Below, in pieces: positions 234 to 39,947 of a stretch of 39,947 nt of DNA. The notes beneath the pieces were generated by a model. That model ran no database searches and was not told the origin of the DNA. It saw nothing but the letters and a program-made list of their open reading frames with translations. The translations under genes and the position numbers were made by a program. Source of the DNA: Chiloscyllium plagiosum (lineage: Eukaryota); NCBI RefSeq assembly GCF_004010195.1, contig NC_057719.1, positions 25,431,697 to 25,471,643 on the forward strand. Direction: 5' to 3'. How positions within the stretch are numbered: position 1 is the stretch's first letter; the number at the start of each line of letters is the position of its first letter.

Positions 234-1088
234 TTATCTAAGAGAGTCCAAGAATTCCTTAGCCTTTTCTGGTGATCCAATGTTATATACGGATCCTTCA
301 TGGTTAGAGCGTAACGTCGCTGGGTAGCGTAAGGAGTACTGTACATTTAAGTCCCTTAAGCGCTTCTTCGCCTCGTCGAATGCCTTCCTCTTTCGAACCA
401 GAGGCGGGGAAAAGTCCTGAAATAGCATGATCTTGGATCCTTTGTAGATCATAGCTTGGGGGTCTTTTCCGAGATTTCTAGAGGCTTCTAGGAGTATCTG
501 CCTCTCCCTGTAGCTCTGCAGCCGGAACAGGACCGGGCGTGGGCGCTGGTTTGAGCCAGGCCTGCGTATTGCTACTCGGTAGGCCCATTCCACCCTTACC
601 TGGCCTGATCCAGCTTGCAGATTTAAAAGTTGTGGCAGCCACTGCTCCAGGAATGCTGTAAGCTGGCCTTCCTCTTCCCGTTCGGGAAGGCCCAGCAAAC
701 GAATATTTTTTCGGTGACCTCGATTATCGAGGTCAATATGATTTTCCAAGGTCCGGACTCGCTGCTCGAGAGTCCAGGCCTGTTCCACGGCCGATTGAGC
801 GGTATTTTCGGAGGTCGCGGCCTTTAGCTCCGCCCCTCCGACTCGGCGTTCAATTTCTTGAATCTCTCGGTCGTGCTTCTGCAGCGCGGCCGAGAGCGAG
901 TCCCAACGATTTCTGGATTCTGCAATAAAGGCATCGATCTTCGAGTCAAGCTTGGAAAGCATTTCTGCAAGGCTTGTTACTGTTGGTAAGTCCCCCGGGG
1001 CGGCTGTGGACGCCTCTGCTGCAGCTGGAGAGGGTGGGGGAGGGGTTCCTGCCTGCTGAGAGCTGCGGGCTCCCTTCCCTTTAGTCAT
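234..1088 (-). CDS. L1 ORF1p-like nucleic-acid chaperone (coiled coil, RRM, CTD; Transposase_22-like)
   Basis: 284-aa open frame with a heptad region, then LDNRGHRKNIRLLGLPEREE, RPRPVLFRLQSY, IMLFQDFSPPLVRKRKAF and YSLRYPATL, all typical L1 ORF1p motifs. Confidence 0.9.
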   Translation of the reverse strand: MTKGKGARSSQQAGTPPPPSPAAAEASTAAPGDLPTVTSLAEMLSKLDSKIDAFIAESRNRWDSLSAALQKHDREIQEIERRVGGAELKAATSENTAQSAVEQAWTLEQRVRTLENHIDLDNRGHRKNIRLLGLPEREEEGQLTAFLEQWLPQLLNLQAGSGQVRVEWAYRVAIRRPGSNQRPRPVLFRLQSYRERQILLEASRNLGKDPQAMIYKGSKIMLFQDFSPPLVRKRKAFDEAKKRLRDLNVQYSLRYPATLRSNHEGSVYNIGSPEKAKEFLDSLR

Positions 1089-1241
1089 TTTAACTTAGGA
1101 TTAAATTGTTTAAATGTAATATTACACAACTAAATAAATTACACAACTATTATAAATGATTTGGTGAGCTTGGTAGGGGGTGGGTGACACACTGTACCCA
1201 AGTCTTGGGAGGAGCACTATAGACTCAGTCTTACTGGGTCA

Positions 1242-1261: not shown

Positions 1262-1324
1262 TCAGCCTTCTTTAAGCCACTTTTGCATTCAATTGACTAG
1301 CTCCCCCTTGATCACACATGATAT

Positions 1325-2965
1325 AACATAGAACATAGAACAATACAGGGCAGAACAGGCTCTTCAGCCCTTGGTGTTGGGTCGACCTGTGAACTAATCT
1401 AAGCCCATCTCCTTACACTATCCCATCATCATCCATGTGCTTATCCAAGGAATGTTTAAATGTCCCTAATGTCGCTGAGTTAACTATATTTGCAGGCAGG
1501 GCATTCCATGCCCTTACCACTCTCTGAGTAAAGAATCTGCCCCGACATCTATCTTAAATCTATCAACCCTCAATTTGTAGTTATGCCCCCTCGTACACGC
1601 TGACGTCATCATCCTAGGAAAAAGTCTTTCGCTCTCTACCCTATCTAATCCTCTGATCATCTTGTATGTCTCTATCAAATCCCCTTTTAGCTTTCTTCTC
1701 TCCAATAAGAACAGACACAAGTCCCTCCATCTTTACTCAAAAGATCTTCCCTCCAGATCAGGCAACATCCTGGTAAATCTCCTCTGCACCTTTTCCAATG
1801 CTTCCACATTCTTCCTGTAATGGGGCAACCAGAACTGTAAGCAATATTCCAAGTGTGGCCGCACCAGCATTTTGTACAGTTGCAGCATGACATTTTGGCT
1901 CTGGAAGCAAATTCCTCTACCAATAAAATCTAACACACCATATGCCTTCTTAACAGCACTATCAACCTGGGTAGCAACTTTCAGGGATCTATGTACATGG
2001 ACACCAAGATCCCTCTGCACACCCACATTACCAAGAATCTTTCCATTGACTCAGTATTCTGCTTTCCTGTTATTCTTCCCACATTTATCTGCATTGAACT
2101 CCATTTTCCACTTCTCAGCCCAATTCTGCAGTTTATCCAAGTCCCCCTGCAACCTGCAACATTCTTCCACACTGTCCACTACTCCATTGACTTTAGTGAC
2201 ATTGTAAAATTACTAACCCATCCACCTATGCCTGCATCCAAGTCATTTATTAGAAATGACAAACAGCAGTGGTCGCAAAATAGATCCTTGTGGCACACCA
2301 CTAGTAACTGGACTACAGGCTGAATATTTTCCATCAACTACCAATCGCTGCTTTCTTACAGAAATCCAGTTTCTAAACCAAACTGCTAAATCAACCTCAA
2401 TTCTATGCCTCTGCATTTTCTCCAACAGCTTACCATGTGGAACCTTATCAAAGGCTTTACTGAAGTCCATGTATACCACTACAACTGCCCTACCCTCATC
2501 AACATGCTGGGTCATCTCTACTTGAACAAGGGCACAATGTTTGCAATCCTCTAGGCTTCTGGTACTAAATCTATAGACAATGATGACTCGAAAATCGAGG
2601 CCAAAGGCTTGCTATCTCCTCTCTAGCTTCCCAAAGAACCCTCGGATAAATCCCATCTGGCCCAGGGGACTTGTCTACTTTCACTCCTTCTAGAATTGAT
2701 AACACCTGCTCCTTACTAACCTCGATCCTTTCTAGTATAATATCCCATGTCTCATTCTTCTCCGCTACAATATTCTCCTTTTCCTGAGTGAAAACAGATG
2801 AGAAATATTCATTTAGTGCTTCTCCAATCGTCACTGGGTCCACACACAACTTCCCACTTCGAACTTTGATAGTCCCTATTCCTACCCGAGTCATCCTTTT
2901 ATTCCTCACATACCTATAGAAAGCTTTAGGGTTCTCCTTTATTTTACCTGCTAAAGACTGTTCAT
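1325..2965 (-). mobile_element. CR1 LINE, 5'-truncated, internally deleted and frameshifted; (TTCTATG)n tail
   Basis: Tail aacatagaacatagaac at 1325-1341; RT fragments [33 protein letters not shown] and KSPGPDGIYPRVL; deletion near 2520 between the VPLFK and EMTQHVDEG segments. Confidence 0.92.
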
Positions 2966-4910
2966 GATCTAACCTTACTAACCAGTCTACCAAGTGGTAC
3001 TTTGTCAAATGCTTTGCTGAAGTCCATACAGGTAATGTCTGCTGCTCTGCTTTCATCAACCTGCTTTGTCACCACCTCAAAAAACTCAGTCAAGTTAGTG
3101 AGACATTATTTCCCCATGTATAAAGCTATTCAGTCCTTGCCTTTCCAAAGCCCCATCACAGGAAGGATGTGGAAGCACTGCAAAAGGTGCAGGGGAGATT
3201 TACCAGGATGTTGCCTGGTCTGGAGGGAAGATCTTATGAGGAAAGGCCGAGAGATTTGGGGCTGTTCTCATTGGAGAGAAGAAGGCTATGAGAGGATTTG
3301 ATAGAGACATACAAGATGATCAGAGATTAGATAGGGTAGAATTCTGTAGCAAACTTCTGTACCTCAGAATCCCCTCCAACACTGATGTAAGACTCACCAA
3401 TCTACAGTTCCCTGGCTTTTCCTTTCTTAAATAATGGCACAACATTATCCAACCTCCGGTCTTCTGGCATCTCACCCGTGACTGTTGATAATACATATAT
3501 CTCTTCTAGGGGCCAAGCAATCTCTTACTTAGCTTTCCACAAAGTTCTGAAAATACCTGATCAGGTCCCAGGATTTTATCTATCTTTATGTGTTGTAAAA
3601 ACTCCAGCACCTCACCTTCTGTAATATGAACTCTTCTCAAGAAATCGCTGTTTATTTCCCCAAATTCTCGAGCTTCCAAGTCCCTCTCCTCAGTAAAGAC
3701 TGATGTGAAATATTTCTTTAGTCTCTCATCCATCTCCTGTGGTTCTATATATAGGCAGCTATGTTGATTTTTAAGGAGCCCTATTCTCTCCCAGTTACTC
3801 TTTTGCCCAAAATATATACCTCTGGAATTTCTTTGAAGTATCCTTAACTTTATTTGCCAAAGCTACGTCATGTCCCCTTTTTTGGCCTTCTGATTTCCCT
3901 CTTAAGTATTCTCCTCTAGCCCTTATACAACTATAAGTTTACTTAATCCCAGGTGTCCATACCTGACATTTGCTTCCTTGACCAGAACTTCAATTTTTCT
4001 AGTCATCCAGAATTCCCTACACTAACAGCCTTGCCATTCACACCAATAGGAACATACTGCCTCTGCACTCTCATTATCTCACTTTTGAAGGCCTCCCACT
4101 TCCCAACTGCCCTCTGAATAGCCTCCCTCAATTAACTTTTGAAAGTTCCTATCTAATACCATCAAAATTGGCTTTCCTCCAATGTAGAACTTTAACTTTT
4201 TGATCAGACCTATCCTTTTCTGTAACTATTTTAAAACCAATAGAATTATGATCACTTGTCCCAAAGTGCTCCCTTACTGACACCTCAATCACTTGCACTG
4301 CCTTATTTTCCATCACAAGGTCAAGTTTTTTTTCCTTGTTTAGTGGGTACATCCACATGTTGAATAAGAAAGTTTTCTTGTCCACACTTAACAAAAATCT
4401 TCCCATCCAAGCCCTTAACACTATGACAGTCCCATTCTATGTTTGGAAAGTTAAAATCCCCTGCCATTATACCCTATTTTTCATATGATACCTGAGATCT
4501 CCTTAGAAATGTCTTCTCAATTTCCCATTGACTACTGGAAGCTAATAATACAATCCCAACAAGATGATCATCCCTTTCTTATTTATCAGTTCCACCCATA
4601 TAACTTCACTGACCATCTCCCAAGAATATCCTCCCTGAATACAGCCATGATATTATCCCTAAGCAAAAACGACAGTTCCCCTCCCCTCTTTCCTCACTTT
4701 CTATCTGTCTTATAACAACTATACCTCAGAACATTAAACTGCCAGTCTTTTCCCTCCCTGAACCATATTTCTGTGATAGCTATGATATCCCAGTCACATA
4801 TTCCCAATCTGCCCTAATTTCATCTGCCTTACCTGTTAAGTCTCTTGCATTAAAGTAAATGTAGTTGAATTTAATTGGTCTTACCTCATTCTCTGCCAGG
4901 CTCTTGTCTG
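2966..4910 (-). mobile_element. Older degenerate CR1 LINE (endonuclease to RT N-terminus), interrupted at 3151-3340
   Basis: LDLVM...GTSDHNSI...WRKANFDGIR (4149-4421), YFTSVFTEE...GPDQ (3506-3733) and a KAFDKV-like segment near 3000-3020. Confidence 0.8.
3151..3340 (+). mobile_element. Tail-less internal CR1 RT fragment, inverted relative to its surroundings
   Basis: Close reverse-complement match to ~1636-1825 (ccccatcacaggaaggatgtggaagca...ttagatagggtaga). Confidence 0.85.
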
Positions 4911-6940: not shown

Positions 6941-7160
6941 CTATTACTCAGAGAGTAGTAAGGGTATGGAATGCTTTGCCTGCAACGATAGTAGGTTCGC
7001 CAAGTTTAAGTGCATTTAAGTCATCATTGGACAGGCATATGGACGTACATGGAATAGTGTAGGTGGGATGGGCTTCAGATTGGTATGACAGGGCGGCGCA
7101 ACATCAAGGGCCGAAGGGCCTGTACTGAGCTGTAATGTTCTATCTTTTAGTTCTATGTTT
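6941..7160 (+). mobile_element. 5'-truncated CR1 3' fragment
   Basis: TQRVVRVWNALP-like coding end, gggccgaagggcctgtactg stem region and ttctatgtt tail. Confidence 0.85.
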
Positions 7161-8295
7161 ATTTACATATAAAAGCTGACCTCCATGCCTAGAGAGTTTT
7201 GAGAGAGTTGGACATAGAGCAGGGACATGAGCACACATTTCAGACATCAAGAATGGAATGCAGGAGTTCAGCCATTAATCAGAAGACATCTAAATCAAGG
7301 GTGAATTTTGAGAACATTTTAGGCACATTTGTAAAGAAAGTGGATGCTGCTTATAGACGGTGAACTATTTATAATGTTCACTAGCATGCGTACAAGAATG
7401 GGAGCTGAGTAATCAGAGGTTGAATGAGAAGGTAACCAGAGGAGGAGATTGAGATTACTGGACCAGCTGAGACAAGACAGAGATAGTAAAAAGAAAATGT
7501 TGTTGAAAGAAGATTTAACAGAAGTTTACAATCAGACCAAGTCAGGAAGAACAGGCGAGGTTTATAATTGGGATGGAAGTGATGTCAGCACAGGTTGAAT
7601 TGATCTTAAATGCTAAGAAATTCTTGCATTTGGTGTTGGAGGTGAATGTGAAGGAGATGGTCACTTGTGGAAAATGGGAATCTGAAGATGATGTCTTTGA
7701 GGAACATTCTATATTGTAAGACATTTTGCTCAGGAATGCAATTCTTAATATGAACAGAACTAACCTGGCAAATGACAGCTAGGCCAGCAGCAACCTAGAT
7801 CCATTTGCAGTTGTGCCTCTGTGATTTGAGGGTTCAGATACAGTTCGGTACAGTTCTTGAGCAGCTAAACCAAAAACAGGGAAAGTGTGAACATCAGAAA
7901 AATGCAGAACAGCCCAAGCTATGACATTCTCCATTATGAAATAGTCTGTCGGGGTTCATAGGGGTTAATTGTATCACATATCTCAGGAAAATATCCAATA
8001 TCTTCTTTAAGAGAGGAGAAGGGAAAAGTTTGGAAAGAACAACTAATTCCATTAGTTTTATAATAGCTAAGGAAACAGATAGGTGTGGTCGCAAGTTCAT
8101 GTTAAAAATTGGGGTAAAGTCAATTTTGATGGGTATAAACAGGAATTTTCAAAAGTTGTTTTGGGGAGGCTGTTTGCAGGCAAAGGATTGTCTGATAAGT
8201 GGGAGGTTTCAAAAGTGAGTTAATGAAGGTTCAGAGCCAGGATGTTCCTGTTAGAATGCAGGGCAGGTCTGGCAGGAGTAGGGAACCCTGGATGT

Positions 8296-9279
8296 TCACG
8301 TTATATATTAATGATCTGGATGAAGGGACTGGGGGCATTCTAGCGAAGTTTGCCAATGATACAAAGTTAGGTGGACAGGCAGGTAGTACTGAGGAAGTGG
8401 GGAGGCTGCAGAAGGATCTAGACAGTTTGGGAGAGTGGTCCAGGAAATGGCTGATGGAATTCAATGTGAGCAAATGCGAGGTCTTGCACTTTGGAAAAAA
8501 GAATACAAGCATGGACTACTTTCTAAACGGTGAGAAAATTCATAAAGCCAAAGTACAAAGGGATCTGGGAGTGCTAGTCGAGGATTCTCTAAGGGTAAAC
8601 ATGCAGATTGAGTCCGTGATTAAGAAAGCGAATGCAATGTTATCATTTATCTCAAGAGGGTTGGAATATAAAAGCACCGTTGTGCTACTGAGACTTTATA
8701 AAGCTCTGGTTAGGACCCATTTGGAATACTGTGTCCAGTTTTGGTCCCCACACCTCAGGAAGGACATACTGGCACTGGAGCGTGTCCAGCGGAGATTCAC
8801 ACGGATGATTGCTGGAATGGTAGGTCTAACATATGAGGAATGGCTGAGGATCTCGGGATTGTATTCATTGGAGTTTAGAAGATTAAGGGGAGATCTAATA
8901 GAAACTTACAAGATAATACATGGCTTGGAGAGGGTGGACGCTAGGAAATTGTTTCCATTAGGTGAGGAGACTAGGAACCGTGGACACAGCCTTAGAATTA
9001 GAGGGGGTAAATTCAGAACAGAAATGCGGAGACATTTCTTCAGCCAGAGAGTGGTGGGCCTGTGGAATTCATTGTGGCAGAGTGCAGTGGAGGCTGGGGT
9101 GCTAAATGTCTTCAAGGCAGAGATTGATAAATTCTTGATGTCACAAGGAATTAAGGGCTACGGGGAGAATGTGGGTAAGTGGAGGTGAAATGCCCATCAG
9201 CCATGATTGAATGGCGGAGTGGACTCGATGGGCCAAATGGCCTTACTTCCACTCCTATGTCTTATGGTCTTATGGTCTT
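8296..9279 (+). mobile_element. Young 5'-truncated CR1 with uninterrupted RT C-terminal frame; (TCTTATGG)n tail
   Basis: FTLYINDLDEG...FANDTKLGG...RTHLEYCVQFWSPH...FFSQRVVGLWNSL open to the stop at 9188; ATGT at both junctions (8292-8295 and 9280-9283). Confidence 0.92.
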
Positions 9280-10942
9280 ATGTCTAGAGTTATTGAGGCC
9301 CTGGTCTTGAAAAAGAAGGAGGCATATGACATGTATAGGCAGCTGGGATCGTTAATTCCTCGAGGAGAGTAAAGGGTGTCAGAATACACTTTAGAGAAAA
9401 AAATCAGGAGGGCTAAAAGGGGACACGGGACGGCTTTCACAGATAAGGTAAAGGAAAATCCAAAGAGATTCGACAAGTATGTGAAGGGAGAAAGAGTCAC
9501 TAAGGAGAAAATAGGGCCACTTAAAGATCAACGAGGTCATCTATGTGAGGAACCACAAGAGATGGGTGAGATCCTAAATGAATATTTACCATCACTATTT
9601 AATGTCAAGAAAGGTATGGATGCTAGGAAACTTGGGGAAATAAATACTGATGTCTTGGAGTGTCTACATTATAGACAAGGAGGTACTAGAAGTCTTAAAA
9701 TGCATGAAGGTAGATAAATCCCTGGGACCTGATGAAGTGTAAGCCAGGACCTTGTAGGAGACTCGGAAATTGCGAGGCTGTTAGGGGAGATATTTATATC
9801 ATCGACAGCCACAGGTGAAGTGCCCAAAGACTAGAAGATGGCTAATGTTGTGCCTTTATTTAAGAAAGGCTGCAGGGAAATACCTGGGAACTATAAATCA
9901 GTGAGCCTAATATCTGTAGTGGTTAAATTATGAGAAGAGATTCTGGAAGACAGGATATACAGACATTTGAGAGGTAAGGATTCATTTGGGATAGTCAGCA
10001 TGGCTTTGTGCTTGAGAAATTTTGTCTAGGAATTTGAAAGAGCTTTTTTTAAGGGATGACCAAGAAAATAGATGAGGACAGTGCCACTGTCTTTATGGAC
10101 TTTAGCAAGGCTTTTGACAAGTTATCGCATTGTAGGTTTTTGAGTATAGCTAAATCTCACTGGATGAAGGGAGAGCTTGCCAATTGGATACAAAATTGGC
10201 TTGATAGTAGAAGACAGAGGCTGGTTGTAGAGGGTTGTTTTTCAGACTGGAGACGTGTGACCAGTGGGGTGTCACAGGGATTGGTGCTGGGTCCACTGTT
10301 ATTTGTCATTTATATAAATGATTTGGATGAGAATTTATATGGTTAGTAAGTTTGCGAATGACACCAGGATTGGTGTTATTGTGGACAGTGAAGAAGGAAT
10401 ATCTGGGAATGCAATGAGATCTTGATCAACTGATCCATTGGGCTGAGCATTGGCAGATGGAGTTTAATTCAGATAAATGCAAGGTGTTGCATTTTGGTGG
10501 GTCAAGCCAGTGCAGGACTTACACAGTCAATAGTATGGCCCCAGGGTATATTATAGAACAAAGAAGTCTCGGGGTACAGGTACATAGCTCCTTGAAAGTG
10601 GAGTCACAGGTGGACAATGTGGTGAAGAAGGCTTTTGGCATGCTAGCTTTTATCGGTGAGAGTACTGAATATAGGAGTTGGGAGTACTAGATGTTGGTGA
10701 AGCCACAGTTTGGATTTTACTACTATAGGAAGGATATTATTAAAGTAGAAAGAGTGCAGAAAAGATTTACTTGGATGCTACCTGGACTGTTTGAGTTACA
10801 AGGAAGGTTGTATAGGCTGGAACTTTTTTCCCTGAAGCTTAGGAGACTGAAGGGTGACCTTATAGATGTGCATAAAATCATGAGAGGCATAGGTAAGGTA
10901 GATAGCCAACAGCCTTTCCCCATGGAAATGGAGTCTAAAACT

Positions 10943-11423
10943 AGATTTACAAGGATGTTGCCAGTGTTAGAGGATTTGAGCTATAGAGAGAGGCTGAACA
11001 GGCTGGGGCTGTTTTCCCTGGAGCTTCAGAGGCTGAGGGGTGACCTTATAGAGGTTTACAAAATTATGAGGGGCATGGATAGGGTAAATAGGAAAAGTCT
11101 TTTCCCTGGAGTCAGGGAGTCCAGAACTAGAGGGCATAGGTTTAGGGTGAGAGGGGAAAGATATAAAAGAGACCTACGGGCAACTTTTTCACACAGAGAG
11201 TTATACGTGTATGAAATGAGCTGCCAGAGGAAGGGGTGGAGGGTGGTACAATTGCAACATTTAAGAGGCATTCGGATGGGTATATGAATAGGAAGGGTTT
11301 GGAGGGATATACGCTGGGTGTTGGCAGGTGGGACTAAATTGGGTTGGGATATCAGGTCGGCATGGACGGGTTGGACCAAAGGGTCTGTTTCCATGCTGTA
11401 CATCTCTATGACTCTATGACTCT
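10943..11423 (+). mobile_element. HER1-like CR1 3' fragment nested in the older CR1; (ACTCTATG)n tail
   Basis: The RFTRMLP...RLRGDLIEVYKIMRG block is repeated within ORF 10691-11287; tail ctctatgactctatgactct; the host resumes at gaaggcattggtttaagg. Confidence 0.9.
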
Positions 11424-12414
11424 CGAAGGCATTGGTTTAAGGTGAGAGGGGAGAGATACAAAACAGTCCAGAGGAGCCATTCTTTCATACAGAGGGTGGT
11501 GAGTATCTGGAATGAGCTACCAGAGGTAGTGGTGGAAGCGAATGCAATTTCATCCTTTAAGAGACATTTACACAGATACATGGATGGAATAGGTATGGAC
11601 CACATGCAGGCAAATGTTTAAATCGTGAAAATTGGGTGGCATGGGCATGTTGAGATGAAGGGCTTGTTTCCATGCTGTACACCTCCATGACTCTAAGAAA
11701 GAATCTACTTGGATATTTTCTAAACATTTTTTGGTTAACAGTACAGATAATCCTAGGCTTATGTTTTAAAAACCAGTCTCTGAAATGTTCTCATAAGCAG
11801 CTACATAAATGTGAGAATATAAAGAGAATGCTCAGAACAGATGTTCCTCTGAGTGGGTTTAATTATATTAGACATAATTGCATTTGCATTAAAATGAAGG
11901 TGTTTGTTCTTTGGAGCTAGTTGTTGTTTTGCTGAAGGATTTTATTTTGCATGTTGCGAATAGATTTCAAATGAGAAATAAGAAAAGTTTTAAAAACATG
12001 TTGTTTTCTGAACCAACCAATACAGGTCATGTGACAAACTTATCTCAGACAGACTACTTTGTATTCAATGTTCCAGATAATGAAACATAATACGCTTGCA
12101 AATGTTGTCATTAATAAGAATTAGATGTTACCTTCAGCACAAATTTTAAGCTGTTACTAAAGTGTATCTCAGAGCCAAAAATTCCAAAACCGTGATCATA
12201 AATGAAACCCTATGAACATTTGGTGATTTAATTCAAAAAGTGTCACATTTTATAATAAGTCACAAAACTCAAATTGAGAGGGAAAGCGGAGTAATCCGTT
12301 TCCAAATTTGGTGGAATACCTTGTCTGCCAGACACACATAGAATAATTAAGACCTACTGCCCAAGATTTTCTGACCATTCATCTGAACAGTTGGAAAATA
12401 GGAAATTTCATGTA

Positions 12415-13251
12415 GGGGAAAGTGGGGACTGCAGATGCTGGAGATCAGAGTCAAAAAGTATGGCCCTGGAAAAGCATTAGCAGGTCAGGCAGCATCCGAG
12501 GAGCAGGAAAATCGATATTTCGAGCATAAGCCCTTCCTCAGGACTGCAGGGAGTGGGAAGTTCCAAGGGAGCTGAGAAATAAATGGGGGTGTGTGGGGCT
12601 GGTGGAAGGTACCTGGGAATGTGATAGATAGATGAAGGTGGTGAGTGATGGTGATAGGTCAGAGTGGAGGGTGGAGCAGATAGGTGGGAAGGAAGATGGA
12701 CAGGTAGGACAGTTCAAGATGGCAGTGTCAATTTGGAGGGTTGGATCTGGGATAAGGTGGGGGGAGGGAAGATGAGGAAACTGGTGAAATCGTGTAGTTG
12801 GAGAGTGCCAAGGCAGAAGATGAGGTGTTCTTCCCCCAGGCATCGGATGGCTAGGATTTGACGGTGGAGGAGGCCCAGGACTTGCATGTCCTTACTGGAG
12901 TGGGAGGGGGAGTTGAAGTGTTCAGCCACAGGGCTGTAGGGTTGTATAGTGTGTGTGTGTCTCGAAGATGTTTTCTGAAACATTCTACAAGTTGGCGTCC
13001 AATCTCCCCAGTGTAGAGGTGACCACATCGAGAGCAACGGGCACAGTAGATGAGGTGTTTGGAGGTGCAGGAAAATCTCTGCCGGATATAGAAAAATCCA
13101 TTATTGAAATGTTTCTTTATGCATTCGTGATGAAGGGCTTTTGCCTGAAATGTTGATTTCCCTGCTCTTCAGATGCTGCCTGACCTGCTGTGCTTTTCCA
13201 GCACCACACTCTCGACTCTAATCTCCAGCATCTGCAGTCCTCACTTTTGCC
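12415..13251 (-). mobile_element. Penelope-like element derivative: GIY-YIG endonuclease remnant between ~130-bp inverted terminal repeats
   Basis: Minus strand from 13085 reads RQRFSCTSKHLIYCARCSRCGHLYTGEIGRQLVECFRKHLRD, then PVAEHFNSPSHS..DMQVLGL...LIFCLGTLQ; arms 12415-12545 and 13121-13251 are reverse complements. Confidence 0.85.
12510..12545 (-). ncRNA. Putative minimal type I hammerhead ribozyme in the Penelope-like terminal repeat
   Basis: Minus strand AGUC-CUGAGGA-A-GGGC-UUAU-GCUC-GAAA-UA-UC-GAUU: CUGANGA and GAAA cores, stem II, palindromic AUAU in place of helix III and a 4-bp stem I. Confidence 0.55.
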
Positions 13252-13402
13252 GATATTTTTTGTGCAGTTGAAACTTCATATTACCCCTGAGCAGTTAACA
13301 GAGAGCTGTGCACAAGTCACATTATAAATTGAATTATAACAAGGAATGTATGCTACATATAAGTGTACATGATAATTAAGTTTGGCTAAAATTCAGAGCT
13401 TT

Positions 13403-14390: not shown

Positions 14391-14787
14391 TCATAAGTCA
14401 GAGTTATAGAGTTATAGAGATGGACAGCACCCTTTGCTTGAAAAAGTTGCCCCTTAGGTCCCTTTTAAATCATTCGCCTCTCACCTTAAACCTTCACCCT
14501 TTGGTTCTGGACTCCCATGCCAGGCAAAATACCTTGTCTATTTACCCTATCCGTATCCCTCATGATTTTATAAACCTCTATAAGATCACCCCTCAGCCTT
14601 TGATGCTCCAGGGAAAACAGCCCCAGCCACTCAGCCTCTCCCTGTAGCTCAAACCCGCTAACCCTGGCAACATCCTTGTAAACCTTTTCTGAACCCTTTC
14701 AATTTTTACAACACCCCTCCTATGACCAGAATTGCACACATTATTCCAAAAGTGACCGAACCAATGTCCTGCACAGCGACATCATGA
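14391..14787 (-). mobile_element. HER1-like CR1 3' fragment with internal deletion
   Basis: Degenerate tail gagttatagagttatagag; reverse complement of the family at 10943-11423. Confidence 0.85.
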
Positions 14788-14924
14788 TGTGGTTCAGGAT
14801 GTAAGTGTTCACTTTCAAGAATAAAACTTTTAGTTTGACTAAGACTGATTTAATTTGATTTATTGTAGTCACGTGTACCTAAGCAGTACAGACAGATCAT
14901 CACAAACAAGGACATACAGATCAC

Positions 14925-15476
14925 TAGGAGAAAGTGAGAACTGCAGATCTGGAGATCACAGTCAAAAAGTGTGGTGCTGGAAAAGCACAGCAGGCCATGT
15001 TGGGGGAGAGGGGATGTGGTGTGGCCAAGGGGGCTGAGAGATAAATGGGAGGTGTTGGGACTGGGGGGAAGATAGCTTGGAAGCAATAGGTAGATGAAGG
15101 TGGGAGGTGATGGTGATAGATCAGAGCGGATGGTGGAATGGATAGGTGGGAAGGAAGATGGACAGGTAGGACAGTTCAAGACGGCAGTGCCGAATTGGAA
15201 GGTTGCAGAATTATTCAGGGAACACATTGGGGCACACGCACCCAACAGCCCTATGGCCAACCACTTCAACTCCCTCTTCCCACTCTGCCAAGAACATGCA
15301 AGTCCTGGGCCTCCTCCACTGCCAAATCCAAGCCACCAGACACCTAGAGGAGAAACGCCTCATCTTTTGCATTGGGACCCTCCAACCACATGCCATCAAT
15401 GTCAATTTCACCAGTTTTGTTATCTTCCTTCCCTCCAACTTATCCCAGATCCAACCTTCCAATGCAGCCCTGCCCA
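14925..15476. mobile_element. Rearranged Penelope-like derivative of the 12415-13251 family with an internal inversion
   Basis: Starts taggagaaagtgagaactgcagat; colinear with 12415-12745 until ~15205, then the GIY-YIG C-terminus appears on the plus strand (ANHFNS...MQVLGLLHCQIQATRHLEEKRLIFCIGTLQPHAIN). Confidence 0.8.
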
Positions 15477-15969
15477 GTTGAAATTCAAATACTATTAGGA
15501 GTATATTTTTGTGGACGGATATAAATTGGCGAATACTTTTAAAATGTCTTATGATCACTAGATATGAAGGAAGGCGTTTCTCAATTCTGAAAACTTATGG
15601 TGTGACATCCAGCCAAACACACAACTTCAAGAATAGAGATTAGAGTCTAACTTGTACCCCTCCCATCTTAATCCTCCCACCACATTCATCTTATTTCATT
15701 CTTCCCAGCCATAGTAACAATCAGTTGAAAGTTGGGAACGATGCACAGTTAGCACTGATCTGTTACTGCCGATTCACAATGGTGGCATTGATCATGAAAT
15801 TGTGTCCTGATTTGTTTGGAAAGCATTTTGTCTGCAGCAAAAAACAGTAAAACTGGTCTGAGTGGTCTGGCATATTTGAAAATGGAACTCCAGTATGACT
15901 GTACATTTAGTTCCAAGCTTTATGTTTTTTTTTGCTGATAACCTCTGGGTTATCACAACTGAAAGGATT

Positions 15970-16737
15970 GATTAGTATGTTGGCAGGTGATACCAAAATT
16001 AGACGCATAGTGGACAGTGAAGAAGGTTATCTCAGTGTACAAAGGGACCTTGATCAGATAGGCTGAGGAGTGGCAGATGGATTTTAATTTAGGTAAATGT
16101 GAGGTGTTGCGCAAGTGCAGATTCATAGTTTCTTTAAGATGGAGCCATTGGTCAATAGGATCGTGAAGAAGGCATTTGATATGCTAACCTTTATTGATCA
16201 GTGCATTAAGTGTAGGAGTTGGGATGTCATGTTGTGGCTGTACATGTTATGCCACTTTTGGAAAACAGTATTCAATTCTAGTCTCCCTGCTTTAGGAGAG
16301 GTACTGTGAAACTTGAAAAGATTCAGAAAAGCTTTACAAGGATGTTGCCAGGATTGGAGAGTTTGTGCTATAGGGAGAGAATGAATATGCTGGGAATTTT
16401 TTTCCTTATAGCGTTGGAGGCTGAGGGGTGACCTGATAGAGGTTTATAAAATCATGAGGGGCATGGATAGGATGAATAGTCAAGGTCTTTTTCCCAGGAT
16501 AGGAACAAAAAGGGCATAGGTTTAAGGTGAAAGAGGAAAGAGGAAAGAGGACAGAGGCTGGTGCATATTTGAGAAGTGGTGGAGGCTGGTACAATTACAT
16601 TTAAAAAGCAGTAGGAAAGGTTTAGAGGGATATGGGCAAAATGCAGACAAGTGTGACTAGTTTAGTTTAGGAAACTTGGTCAGCATAGACCAGTTGGACT
16701 GAAGGGCCTGTTTCCGTGCTACATGACTCTATGATTC
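15970..16737 (+). mobile_element. Degenerate HER1-like CR1 3' region with deletions
   Basis: Decayed FADDTKI-like motif at 15977-16000, RLRGDLIEVYKIMRG at 16417-16461 and tail atgactctatgattc. Confidence 0.85.
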
Positions 16738-16739
16738 CA

Positions 16740-17144
16740 AACTGGTGTTGTTTTCTATAGAGCAGTGAAGGCTGGGTTAGACGGTCCTGATTAATGTGTA
16801 CAAAATTGTGAGAGGTACAGATAGGATAGATAGGATGAAACATTACTCCTTAGTACAGGGATCAATAACTAGAGGCATAGATTTAAAGTGAGGGACAGGA
16901 GGTTTAGAGGGGATTTATGGAGGAATTTTGTTCACCAGTCGGTGGTGTATATTCGGAACTCACTGCCTGAAAGACTGGAACGATCACAACATTTATGAAG
17001 TATTAGATGATCTCTTAAAGCTTCATATAAAGCTACAGGCCAAGTGCTGAAAAATTGGACTACAGTAATTAGGTGCTCAATGACCAGTATAAACACAACA
17101 GGCCAAAAGGCCTCTTTCTGTAATGTAGAACTCTATGGTTCTAT
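16740..17144 (+). mobile_element. Degenerate CR1 3' fragment
   Basis: actagaggcatagatttaaagtgaggg, cggaactcactgcctga and tail ctctatggttctatg. Confidence 0.75.
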
Positions 17145-17591
17145 GGCCCACCACCTCACAACCCCTACTGCATACTATGTGCACTCAAGTGCAAAATCTA
17201 CACTTTGAAATTTTTGATTTTGTTGAACAACCTTCTTTATTTAGAAAGCAGTGTTGCTGCCAAATAGTGCACACAGGTCTAGGAGGAAGCTAGATAATTG
17301 AGAAAGATGAGAGGAATATGGTGACGTGAGGTTAGGCTGATGTGGAGCTTTAACCCCACAGAAAACTTATTGGGCAAATAGTGTATATCTACATTACAGA
17401 TTGTATGTTAAGTGAAAGCAACATATTTATCACTAAATTTAGCCAAAGGTTTTAAGAAAAATAATGTATCATTTGTGGGCCCATGTGTAAAGTTATAAGA
17501 TGCAAACCAAATATACCACCCCAGTACATGTTTAGTCCTTAATTTAGGTTTAATATTTAATCTGAAACTTAGTTTGATACATGAATCGTGT

Positions 17592-27619: not shown

Positions 27620-28062
27620 TAGTCATAGCTTGCTGATAGGCCTTCGAATTCTAAGAAAGAGGGTTCTGGGTTTAAGCCCCATATTGGACCACATAATAAA
27701 GCAATACCGATGCCATAGTCACAGACTGTGACACTGCCAGATATGTGGCCTTTCAGATGAGAATTTAAACTGAAGCCCTGTTTCTCCCTTGAAGTGGATA
27801 ATAACAACATGACTCTCCTCCAAGAGGGTTAGGGGAAATATACCATTGTCCTGGCTAAGAGAAAGTGAGGACAGCAGATGCTGGAGATCAGAGTTGAGAG
27901 TGTAATGCTGGGAAAGCACAGCAGGTCATGGCAGCATCCAAGGAGCAGCGGAATCGTTGATTTTCCTGCTCCAAAGATGCTGCCTGACCTGCTGTGCTAT
28001 TCCAGCATTACACTCTCGACATTTTCCTGGCTAACACATGACATTCAACCAACACCAGCAAA
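27620..28062 (+). mobile_element. Old Deu-domain (SacSINE1/AmnSINE-like) SINE interrupted by a palindromic insert
   Basis: B-box-like gggtttaagcccc; ctttcagatgagaatttaaactgaagccctg and tgtcctggctaa...tcaaccaacacc resemble the Deu domain (recognised from memory). Confidence 0.55.
27859..28020. mobile_element. 162-bp palindromic mini-element made only of the Penelope-like terminal repeat, with a 14-bp TSD
   Basis: Arms match 12415-12514 and 13153-13216; ATTGTCCTGGCTAA at 27845-27858 and ATTTTCCTGGCTAA at 28021-28034. Confidence 0.85.
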
Positions 28063-28921: not shown

Positions 28922-29120
28922 AAAGTTAAAAATCACACAACACCAGGTTATAGTCCAACAGGTTTATTTGGAAGCACTAGCTTTCAGAGCGCTGTTCCTT
29001 CAAGTGATGAAGGAGCAGCACTCAAAAAGCTAGTGCTTCCAAATAAACCTGTTGGACTATAACCTGGTGTTGTGTGATTTTTAACTTTGTACGCCTCAGT
29101 CCAACACCAGCAACTCTACA
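28922..29120. mobile_element. Near-perfect 167-bp palindrome plus ~32-bp unpaired extension; second Penelope-like terminal-repeat family
   Basis: 28922-29002 is the reverse complement of 29008-29088; the centre has hammerhead-like tgatgaaggagc...aaagcta; TCATTAACTT occurs at 28908-28917 and 29121-29130. Confidence 0.8.
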
Positions 29121-33429: not shown

Positions 33430-34850
33430 TGCAGAAGAAAGCTTTTCAGCCAATGTGTGTGCCCCAGTTCTCCAATGAGCATTCTGACTTGGTGCCATTC
33501 TTCCCTTTCTCTCTTTAACCTTACAATTGCTTCTATTTAAATAATCACCAAATGGCCTTTTGAGTATGGCAATACAATTTGCCACCACCACATTTCCAGG
33601 TATTGTATTCCAGAAATGAACCTACTCATCATGTGAAAAAGTTTATTTTTCTCACACTGTATATATTTGCTTTGCAGATTGCTTTAAGTGTGTGATCTTT
33701 CATTCCGTTTCCTTTTATGAGCAGGAACAGTTTCACCCTATCTATTCTAACTTGCTCCTTTATGATTTTGAAAACTTCTATCAGATCTCTTAGCCTTCTT
33801 TTCTGGAAGGGCAGGTTTATAAAACCATGAGGGGCATGGATAGGGTAAATAGACAAGGTCTTTTCCCTGGGGTGAAGGAATCCAGAACTAGAGGGCATAG
33901 GTTTAGGGTGAGAGGGGAAAGATATAAAAGGGACCTAAGGGGCAACTTTTTCACACAGAGGGTGGTATGTCTATGGAATGAGCTGCCAGAAGAAGTGGTG
34001 GAGGCTGGTACAATTATATCATTTAAAAGGCATCTGAATGGGTATATGAATAGGAAGGGTTTAGAGGGACATGGGCCAATTGCTAGCAAATGGGACTAGA
34101 TTAATTTAGGATATCTGGTTGGCATGGACAAGTTGGACCAAAGAGTCTGTTTCTGTACTGTACATCTCTTTGACAACAGTCTCAGCCTCCCCAGTTGATC
34201 CCCATAACTGAAATTTCTCACCCCTGGAAAACACTCTTGGAAGTCTCTTTTGCACTCTCACCAACACAGTCACATCCTTCCTATAATGTACTGCCTATAA
34301 TTGTAGACAATACTCCTCCGGAAGTATAATAAGAATCTTTTACACATTCAGCATCACTTCCTTGCTTTAGTACTCTGTGCCCTCATTATAAAGCCCAGAA
34401 TACTATCTGCTTTATTAACTGCTCTCTAACTGTCCTACCAGCTTCAAAGATCTGTGTTCAGATACACCCAGCTCCCAGCACCTGTACTCACTTTAGAATG
34501 CACCCCTTAATCTATATGATCTTTTCATGTTCTTCCTATCAAAATACATCACCTCACACTTCTCCATATTTAACTTTATCTGCCACCTATCTGCTGTCTC
34601 CATCAACTTGTCATTATTCTATTGAAGATTTACACAGTCTTTCTAACAATTCACAATGCTTCCAAGTTTCATTTCATTTGTAAACTTTGAAATTGTCCCT
34701 TGTACACCAAGATCTAGATGATTTATATATGTATCAGGGCAAACAATACTGACCCCTGAGGAACTCCACTGCAAACCTTCCTCCAGCCTGAAAATTATCC
34801 ATTGACTATTACACTCCATTTCCTGTCATTCAGCCAATTTTGTAACCAAA
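33430..34850 (-). mobile_element. Old CR1 remnant interrupted by a younger opposite-strand CR1
   Basis: FQKRRLRDLIEVFKIIK...INFFT (33629-33810); RT-like continuation at 34175-34850 including gacccctgaggaactccact (SGVPQGS on the minus strand). Confidence 0.75.
33813..34174 (+). mobile_element. HER1-like CR1 3' fragment
   Basis: MRGMDRVNRQGLFPGVKESRTRGHRFRVRGERYKRDLRGNFFTQRVV; close match to 11052-11412. Confidence 0.92.
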
Positions 34851-39360: not shown

Positions 39361-39947
39361 AGAGTAGAGTCATAGAGTCATAGAGATGTACAGCATGGAA
39401 ATAGACCCTTCGGTCCAATCTGTCCATGCCGACCAGATATCCCAACCCAATCTAGTCCCACCTGCCAGCACCTGGCCCATATCCCTCCAAACCCTTCCTA
39501 TTCATATACCCATCCAAATGCCTCTTAAATGTTGCAATTGTACCAGCCTCCACCACATCCTCTGGCAGCTAATTCCATACACATACCACGCTCTGCATGA
39601 AAAAAGTTGCTCCTTAGGTCTCTTTTATATCTTTCTCTTTTATATCTTAACCTATGCCCTCTAGTTCTGGACTCCCTGATCCCAGGGAAAAGACTTTGTC
39701 TATTTATCCTATCCATGCCCCTCATAATTTTGTAAACCTTTAGGAGGTCACCCTTCAGCCTCCGACGCTCCAGAGAAAACAGACCCAGCCTGTTCAGCCT
39801 CTCCCCATAGCTCAAATCCTCCAACCCTGGCAACATCCTTGTAAATCTTTTCTGAACCCTTTCAAGTTTCACAACACCTTTCCGATAAGAAGGAGACCAG
39901 AGTTGTACACAATATTCCAACAGTGGCCTAACCAATGTCCTGTACAG
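39361..39947 (-). mobile_element. HER1-like CR1 3' region running off the window end
   Basis: Tail agagtcatagagtcatagag; VRPLLEYCVQLWSPSYRKGVVKLERVQKRFTRMLPGLEDLSY. Confidence 0.93.

Follow-up and report, generated by a model that had tools for sequence, protein, structure and literature searches.

The minus strand at 12545-12510 of the window, the whole analysed stretch of 39,947 nucleotides from the Chiloscyllium plagiosum genome, carries a decayed hammerhead copy in the terminal repeat of an abundant Neptune-type Penelope-like element (PLE), and this copy likely no longer cleaves. The motif is a 36-nt minimal type I hammerhead, with letters and coordinates exactly as given by the initial annotation. 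Along the minus strand, the 5′ strand of stem I (AGUC, 12545-12542) is followed by the CUGAGGA core (12541-12535), an inserted A (12534), stem II with its loop (GGGC/UUAU/GCUC, 12533-12522), the GAAA core (12521-12518), helix III AUAU (12518-12515), C17 (12514) and the 3′ strand of stem I (GAUU, 12513-12510). The presumptive cut would fall between C17 and 12513.

The copy displays the CUGANGA and GAAA boxes, an NUH triplet (AUC, which the NUH rule allows), the palindrome and the absence of loop 3 that characterize minimal hammerheads (min-HHRs), together with a nucleotide inserted between positions 9 and 10.1 and a G10.1-C11.1 pair. Judged by its letters, it is a member of a class already described in 2014, when min-HHRs were reported in the terminal repeats (pLTRs) of metazoan PLEs, including Xena, Poseidon and Neptune of fish (Cervera & De la Pena 2014, PMC4209133). 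According to that report the inserted nucleotide, the G10.1-C11.1 pair and the palindrome, situated at positions 15.2-16.2, are min-HHR traits. The elements described there also share with those studied here the type I form without loop 3, a short stem I, the location in a PLE terminal repeat, U3-A8 variants, and copies that are mostly solitary or on opposite strands, 100-700 bp apart. Differences concern stem II, of 4 bp here versus 7-8 bp in Schistosoma, and copy number, at least 120,029 here with one strict pattern versus about 4,000 in coelacanth and about 9,000 in Xenopus as counted with a different descriptor (PMC4209133). One of the two supplement files of that paper holds no shark, skate or Callorhinchus entry.

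The initial annotation had proposed an Infernal-type check and a motif-descriptor search. The former returned no hammerhead: Rfam gave nothing at gathering score over the whole window, and the six weak matches obtained for 12300-13400 at E<=10 include no hammerhead family. The latter was positive, the structure descriptor having 80 matches in 1,153,412 non-N bases, sampled as 120 evenly spaced stretches of the genome, and none in the reversed control; its sole match in the window is the 12545-12510 copy. A loose core pattern occurs in the window at chance level (5 matches vs 3.6 expected), and the family-type pattern has a single match there and none in 100 shuffles.

The hammerhead sits downstream of the decayed end of a GIY-YIG endonuclease and upstream of a tail of about 100 nt, the position of a PLE terminal repeat. 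This context, with the family counts given below, bears out the initial proposal of a minimal type I hammerhead in such a repeat. On the minus strand, a frameshifted C-terminal GIY-YIG endonuclease remnant of a Neptune-type PLE, 5′-truncated near 13100, occupies 12714..13100; a pyrimidine-rich 3′ untranslated or pLTR segment, placed by alignment to the relatives L195 and L196, leads from the endonuclease end to the hammerhead (12546..12713); and the PLE tail downstream of the cut site covers 12416..12513 and stops at about +98; the 3′ ends of family members commonly lie either there or at about +60. Since Pfam found no family in the four PLE-remnant frames of the window, the identity of the element was established from relatives. 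The remnant shares 32 of 50 residues (E 1e-19) with a 754-aa reverse transcriptase (RT) and endonuclease open frame of L195, and the DNA from the remnant through the hammerhead and tail aligns continuously with both L195 and L196. The L195 frame scores 32.5 bits for RVT_1 (cut-off 29.6) and 21.7 bits for GIY-YIG, just under the cut-off of 22.6. Young relatives (L193-L212) associate RT, Cys-rich linker, GIY-YIG, hammerhead and tail, the linker being found in L195, L207 and L211. A Zn-finger-like Cys motif in the RT-endonuclease linker marks Neptune and Nematis PLEs (PMC8557442); by linker and domain motifs the element would thus be Neptune-type, the linker criterion being common to Nematis. The long RT-endonuclease frames of L193-L212 are often interrupted by assembly gaps, and none of 31 RT loci displayed a full-length element preceded by a direct pLTR.

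An inverted, 5′-truncated second pLTR and tail lies on the plus strand at 13122..13251 and starts at the upstream edge of its hammerhead (-33). This second hammerhead (13123-13158, plus strand) has C3 changed to G, AUGU as helix III and C17 changed to U. The loop and tail letters differ from those of the minus-strand copy, and the repeat probably belongs to another subfamily. An inverted second repeat closing the unit is a typical PLE arrangement (PMC8557442; PMC3846280); no target-site duplication adjoins the composite 12416-13251. Two further PLE remnants were observed in the window. At 14925-15481, an endonuclease piece (15170-15481, plus strand) adjoins a minus-strand untranslated region and tail (15205-14925) that have lost the hammerhead by deletion. 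At 27856-28020, a fold-back mini-element consists of two inverted PLE tails with no hammerhead core left, the arms starting a few bases upstream of the cut position, at about -7/-8.

Elsewhere in the window, a 286-aa open frame (234-1094, minus strand), for which Pfam gave weak coiled-coil matches only, resembles a LINE-1-type ORF1. Decayed repeats at 1300-3900, 8200-11600, 14400-17150, 33800-34200 and 39370-39947 make up most of the repeats listed in the window; they are presumably CR1/L2-type LINEs, and one frame among them has a weak RVT_1 match. An 81-nt inverted repeat, 95% complementary with a 5-nt spacer, is found at 28922-29088.

Across the 3.56-Gb assembly, 120,029 sites match the core pattern exactly, and the reversed control matches nowhere. 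Helix III is ACGU, the family form, in 91,579 of them, and the palindromic 4-nt helix III noticed initially in this copy as AUAU is thus a family character. Motif-spanning copies from 140 stretches, 157 in all, have the A inserted before stem II in 147 cases; truncated copies dilute the upstream columns of this set. This A had been taken to cast doubt on activity; being a trait of both the family and the min-HHR class (PMC4209133), it no longer gives reason for that doubt. Pair 10.1/11.1 is G-C in 119 copies and G-U in 23, and pair 10.2/11.2 is G-C in 138, A-C in 8, A-U in 6, G-U in 2 and otherwise in 3. The latter covaries (Fisher p 7e-6), probably through a single subfamily event, so that covariation within the family rests on few events. 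Stem covariation is also observed among families. The family has AUUC in stem I, opposite which one young subfamily carries a fully pairing GAAU, while most copies have a U-U mismatch.

The 80 descriptor matches also comprise families with other letters and the same fold, with AGCU in helix III, CAC/GUG in stem I and a 5-bp stem II, as well as longer stem II variants. Two of these matches, from two families, carry a U3-A8 core variant: L111 (plus strand, near 7014) and L173 (minus strand, offset 6845). The same variant has been described for Schistosoma PLEs (PMC4209133). A second hammerhead-bearing family, with an AGCU palindrome (L213-L242) and probably Poseidon-type, has 31,931 exact genome-wide matches to a 31-nt word of its tail.

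The 5′ ends of copies were mapped after collecting copies by the tail alone. From 223 matches in 120 stretches, a sample of about 0.03-0.04% of the genome, we kept 175 after excluding 31 that scored <30, 2 that did not align, 13 bordering N and 2 lying at an edge. Ninety of the 175 begin at -35..-21 from the cut site, that is, at the upstream edge of stem I and core. Thirteen begin at -5..+5, and not one at the cut site itself (-1..+1). The 5′-end hazard is 0.045 per base at -35..-21, 0.023 at -40..-36 and 0.002-0.008 in other bins. The peak is present in both junction types, direct (35/80) and inverted (55/95), and a target-site duplication of at least 7 bases accompanies 14 of 53 short direct copies (2 in the shifted control). 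In the second family, for which 98 anchors from random and pattern loci gave 97 mapped and 5 dropped, 38 of 92 5′ ends fall at -37..-21 and 5 at -5..+5. An alignment artefact was rejected as the source of the -35..-21 peak: no two of 38 direct copies have upstream sequence in common, and in a simulation of 110 cases 19 ends were called there for 15 true ones. An apparent peak at -145, in contrast, was an artefact of references holding the inverted arm and disappeared once 6 of the 40 references were removed. Ends at the cleavage site, which would have offered in vivo proof of cutting, were thus seen in neither family. The accumulation of 5′ ends at the upstream edge, with none at the cut site, suggests from junction sequences that the uncleaved RNA is the template.

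The absent peak at the cut site agrees with findings on PAc, the Poseidon element of Anolis carolinensis (Frangieh et al. 2024, PMC11167929), in which the hammerhead needed the protein of the element, unprocessed RNA was the dominant template with internal priming in the tail, and no RNA-seq ends were found at the cut site. In both systems the tail, which follows the hammerhead, ends at either of two positions (about +60 and +98 here), and neither gives a sign of cleaved RNA as main template. They differ in clade, the family here having a Neptune-type linker and being known from sequence alone. The pile-up of 5′ ends at the upstream edge of the hammerhead is seen here, while no mention of it was found for PAc in the parts of PMC11167929 consulted.

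From published work on PLEs, in which single min-HHRs did not cleave and dimers were cleaved weakly (PMC4209133), two motifs of an active element would pair via the ACGU palindrome into a double hammerhead, which would cut after C17, weakly or aided by the element's protein. The breakpoint map suggests that reverse transcription would start in the tail, mostly copying uncleaved RNA, and would stop at or near the 5′ edge of the hammerhead; longer copies such as that at 12545-12510 would come from templates running on into the upstream ORF. The family stem I sequence matches what we take to be an initiator consensus, with the A at -32. For Penelope itself, an internal promoter containing an initiator has been reported (PMC2377424). 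A tentative reading, to which we give appreciable weight though short of an even chance, is that the hammerhead serves as the 5′ boundary of the template RNA of the PLE instead of working through cleavage. Transcription would then be driven from stem I by an internal promoter, and the tail-primed RT would run off the end. Alternatively, the upstream-edge peak could reflect termination of RT after the cDNA of stem II folds.

Another explanation, rather unlikely in our estimation, is that in this family the motif retains its hammerhead shape for a function other than cleavage, as a protein-binding, promoter or RT signal at the RNA 5′ end, cleavage being incidental or absent. It would account for 5′ ends at the upstream edge of the motif instead of the cut site in two families, and would suit the reports that hammerhead mutants had no effect on insertion in vitro (PMC11167929) and that PLEs without hammerheads proliferate well (PMC8557442). 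However, the U3-A8 core covariation and the existence of two helix III palindromes fit selection on the catalytic fold, and the hammerhead of the anole element does cleave with protein (PMC11167929). In one raw poly(A) RNA run, dispersed copies of the family have reads on both strands, and these reads display no site where many molecules begin or end; a second run gave no reads, and the unique flanks of the locus were covered by no run.

As for the 12545-12510 copy, the AUAU helix III is rare, being found in 478 of the 120,029 core-pattern matches, and the 100 AUAU copies listed belong to many different loop subfamilies. With the two single changes taken as equally common, the frequency of AUAU is 0.22 of that expected under independence; for the corresponding double change at the nearby C17-G1.1 CpG, used as a control, the value is 0.28 (184/107,282). 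AUAU being no commoner than this control, it is by its sequence distribution ordinary neutral double-hit decay of ACGU, with no sign of retention for dimer pairing, and its reading as a subfamily or a selected palindrome was rejected on the same figures and on its spread over loop subfamilies. The initial annotation derived AUAU from ACGU by CpG decay on both strands; the origin stands, and a single CpG decay combined with an ordinary transition is the better account of the change. Stem I AGUC/GAUU, also pointed out initially, is present and is not the family form: AGUC was found in none of the 157 random copies, and one other AGUC/GAUU stem I exists among the 29 closest loci. On these counts the fully paired stem I is a near-private change. 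The copy also has G at N7, as do 6 of the 157. After insertion it would have taken neutral mutations, from ACGU to AUAU, from U2.3 to G and from N7 to G.

Folding predictions point in the same direction. The helix III duplex is predicted at +0.2 kcal/mol for AUAU versus -3.1 kcal/mol for ACGU; with the lack of enrichment over the control CpG, this speaks against the earlier suggestion that AUAU may still permit dimer pairing. The predicted double-hammerhead energy is -6.4 kcal/mol for this copy versus -9.3 (L195) and -13.1 kcal/mol (L193) for two young copies. In a 100-nt context, the stem II probability is 0.14-0.41, versus 0.84-1.0 in young copies, and the predicted misfold pairs the core with the tail. 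In all four copies folded, the double-hammerhead fold lies above the dimer MFE, so that the model does not cleanly separate active from inactive; moreover folding energies ignore tertiary contacts and protein help, and folding is only suggestive.

Some properties do argue against inactivity, namely that all invariant core positions and the AUC triplet are retained, that helix III is self-complementary and that stem I can pair at each of its four positions. Together with the fact that this is the sole copy of the window passing the descriptor, they would fit a still working ribozyme in which AUAU is compensatory, the new G-U pair strengthens stem I, and the dimer cleaves in host transcripts. 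We regard this as quite improbable: AUAU is not enriched over the control CpG, its predicted duplex is much weaker and does not allow full pairing with most partners, which carry ACGU, stem II is predicted to be displaced in the 100-nt context, and the one other motif close by has a changed C3 and lies on the opposite strand. No same-strand partner motif passing the descriptor is present in the window. As a decayed hammerhead, the copy may nevertheless, to judge from its intact core, undergo weak cleavage in trans. That the hammerhead likeness arose by chance inside a repeat has a negligible probability, for although matches to the loose core pattern in the window are about as frequent as expected by chance and Rfam has no match, the 80 descriptor and 120,029 pattern matches face none in either control, the position is that expected in PLEs, and conservation of the same fold among descriptor matches from families of different sequence refutes it.

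Non-LTR retrozymes carry a type I hammerhead related to those of PLE pLTRs, as is the motif here (bioRxiv 10.64898/2026.07.22.740005; PMC7229834). They are tandem non-coding repeats with a hammerhead per unit, whereas here a single motif is attached to a GIY-YIG remnant. Retrozyme identity of the copy was rejected on these grounds, no tandem hammerhead array of that kind being present in the window.

The 12545-12510 copy itself matters little, being a single decayed example of a class already known. The family to which it belongs exceeds more than tenfold the counts published for coelacanth and Xenopus, so that many host transcripts probably carry hammerhead-like passengers, and its breakpoints provide a genome-scale handle on the open question of PLE hammerhead function. 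If the hammerhead does mark the end of the template RNA, this would explain the copies of about 95-130 bp, which account for about half of the insertions, and the same behavior in two families with different flanks. Hundreds of thousands of junctions would then constitute an in vivo record of the uncleaved template and would offer a direct test of the purpose of PLE hammerheads.
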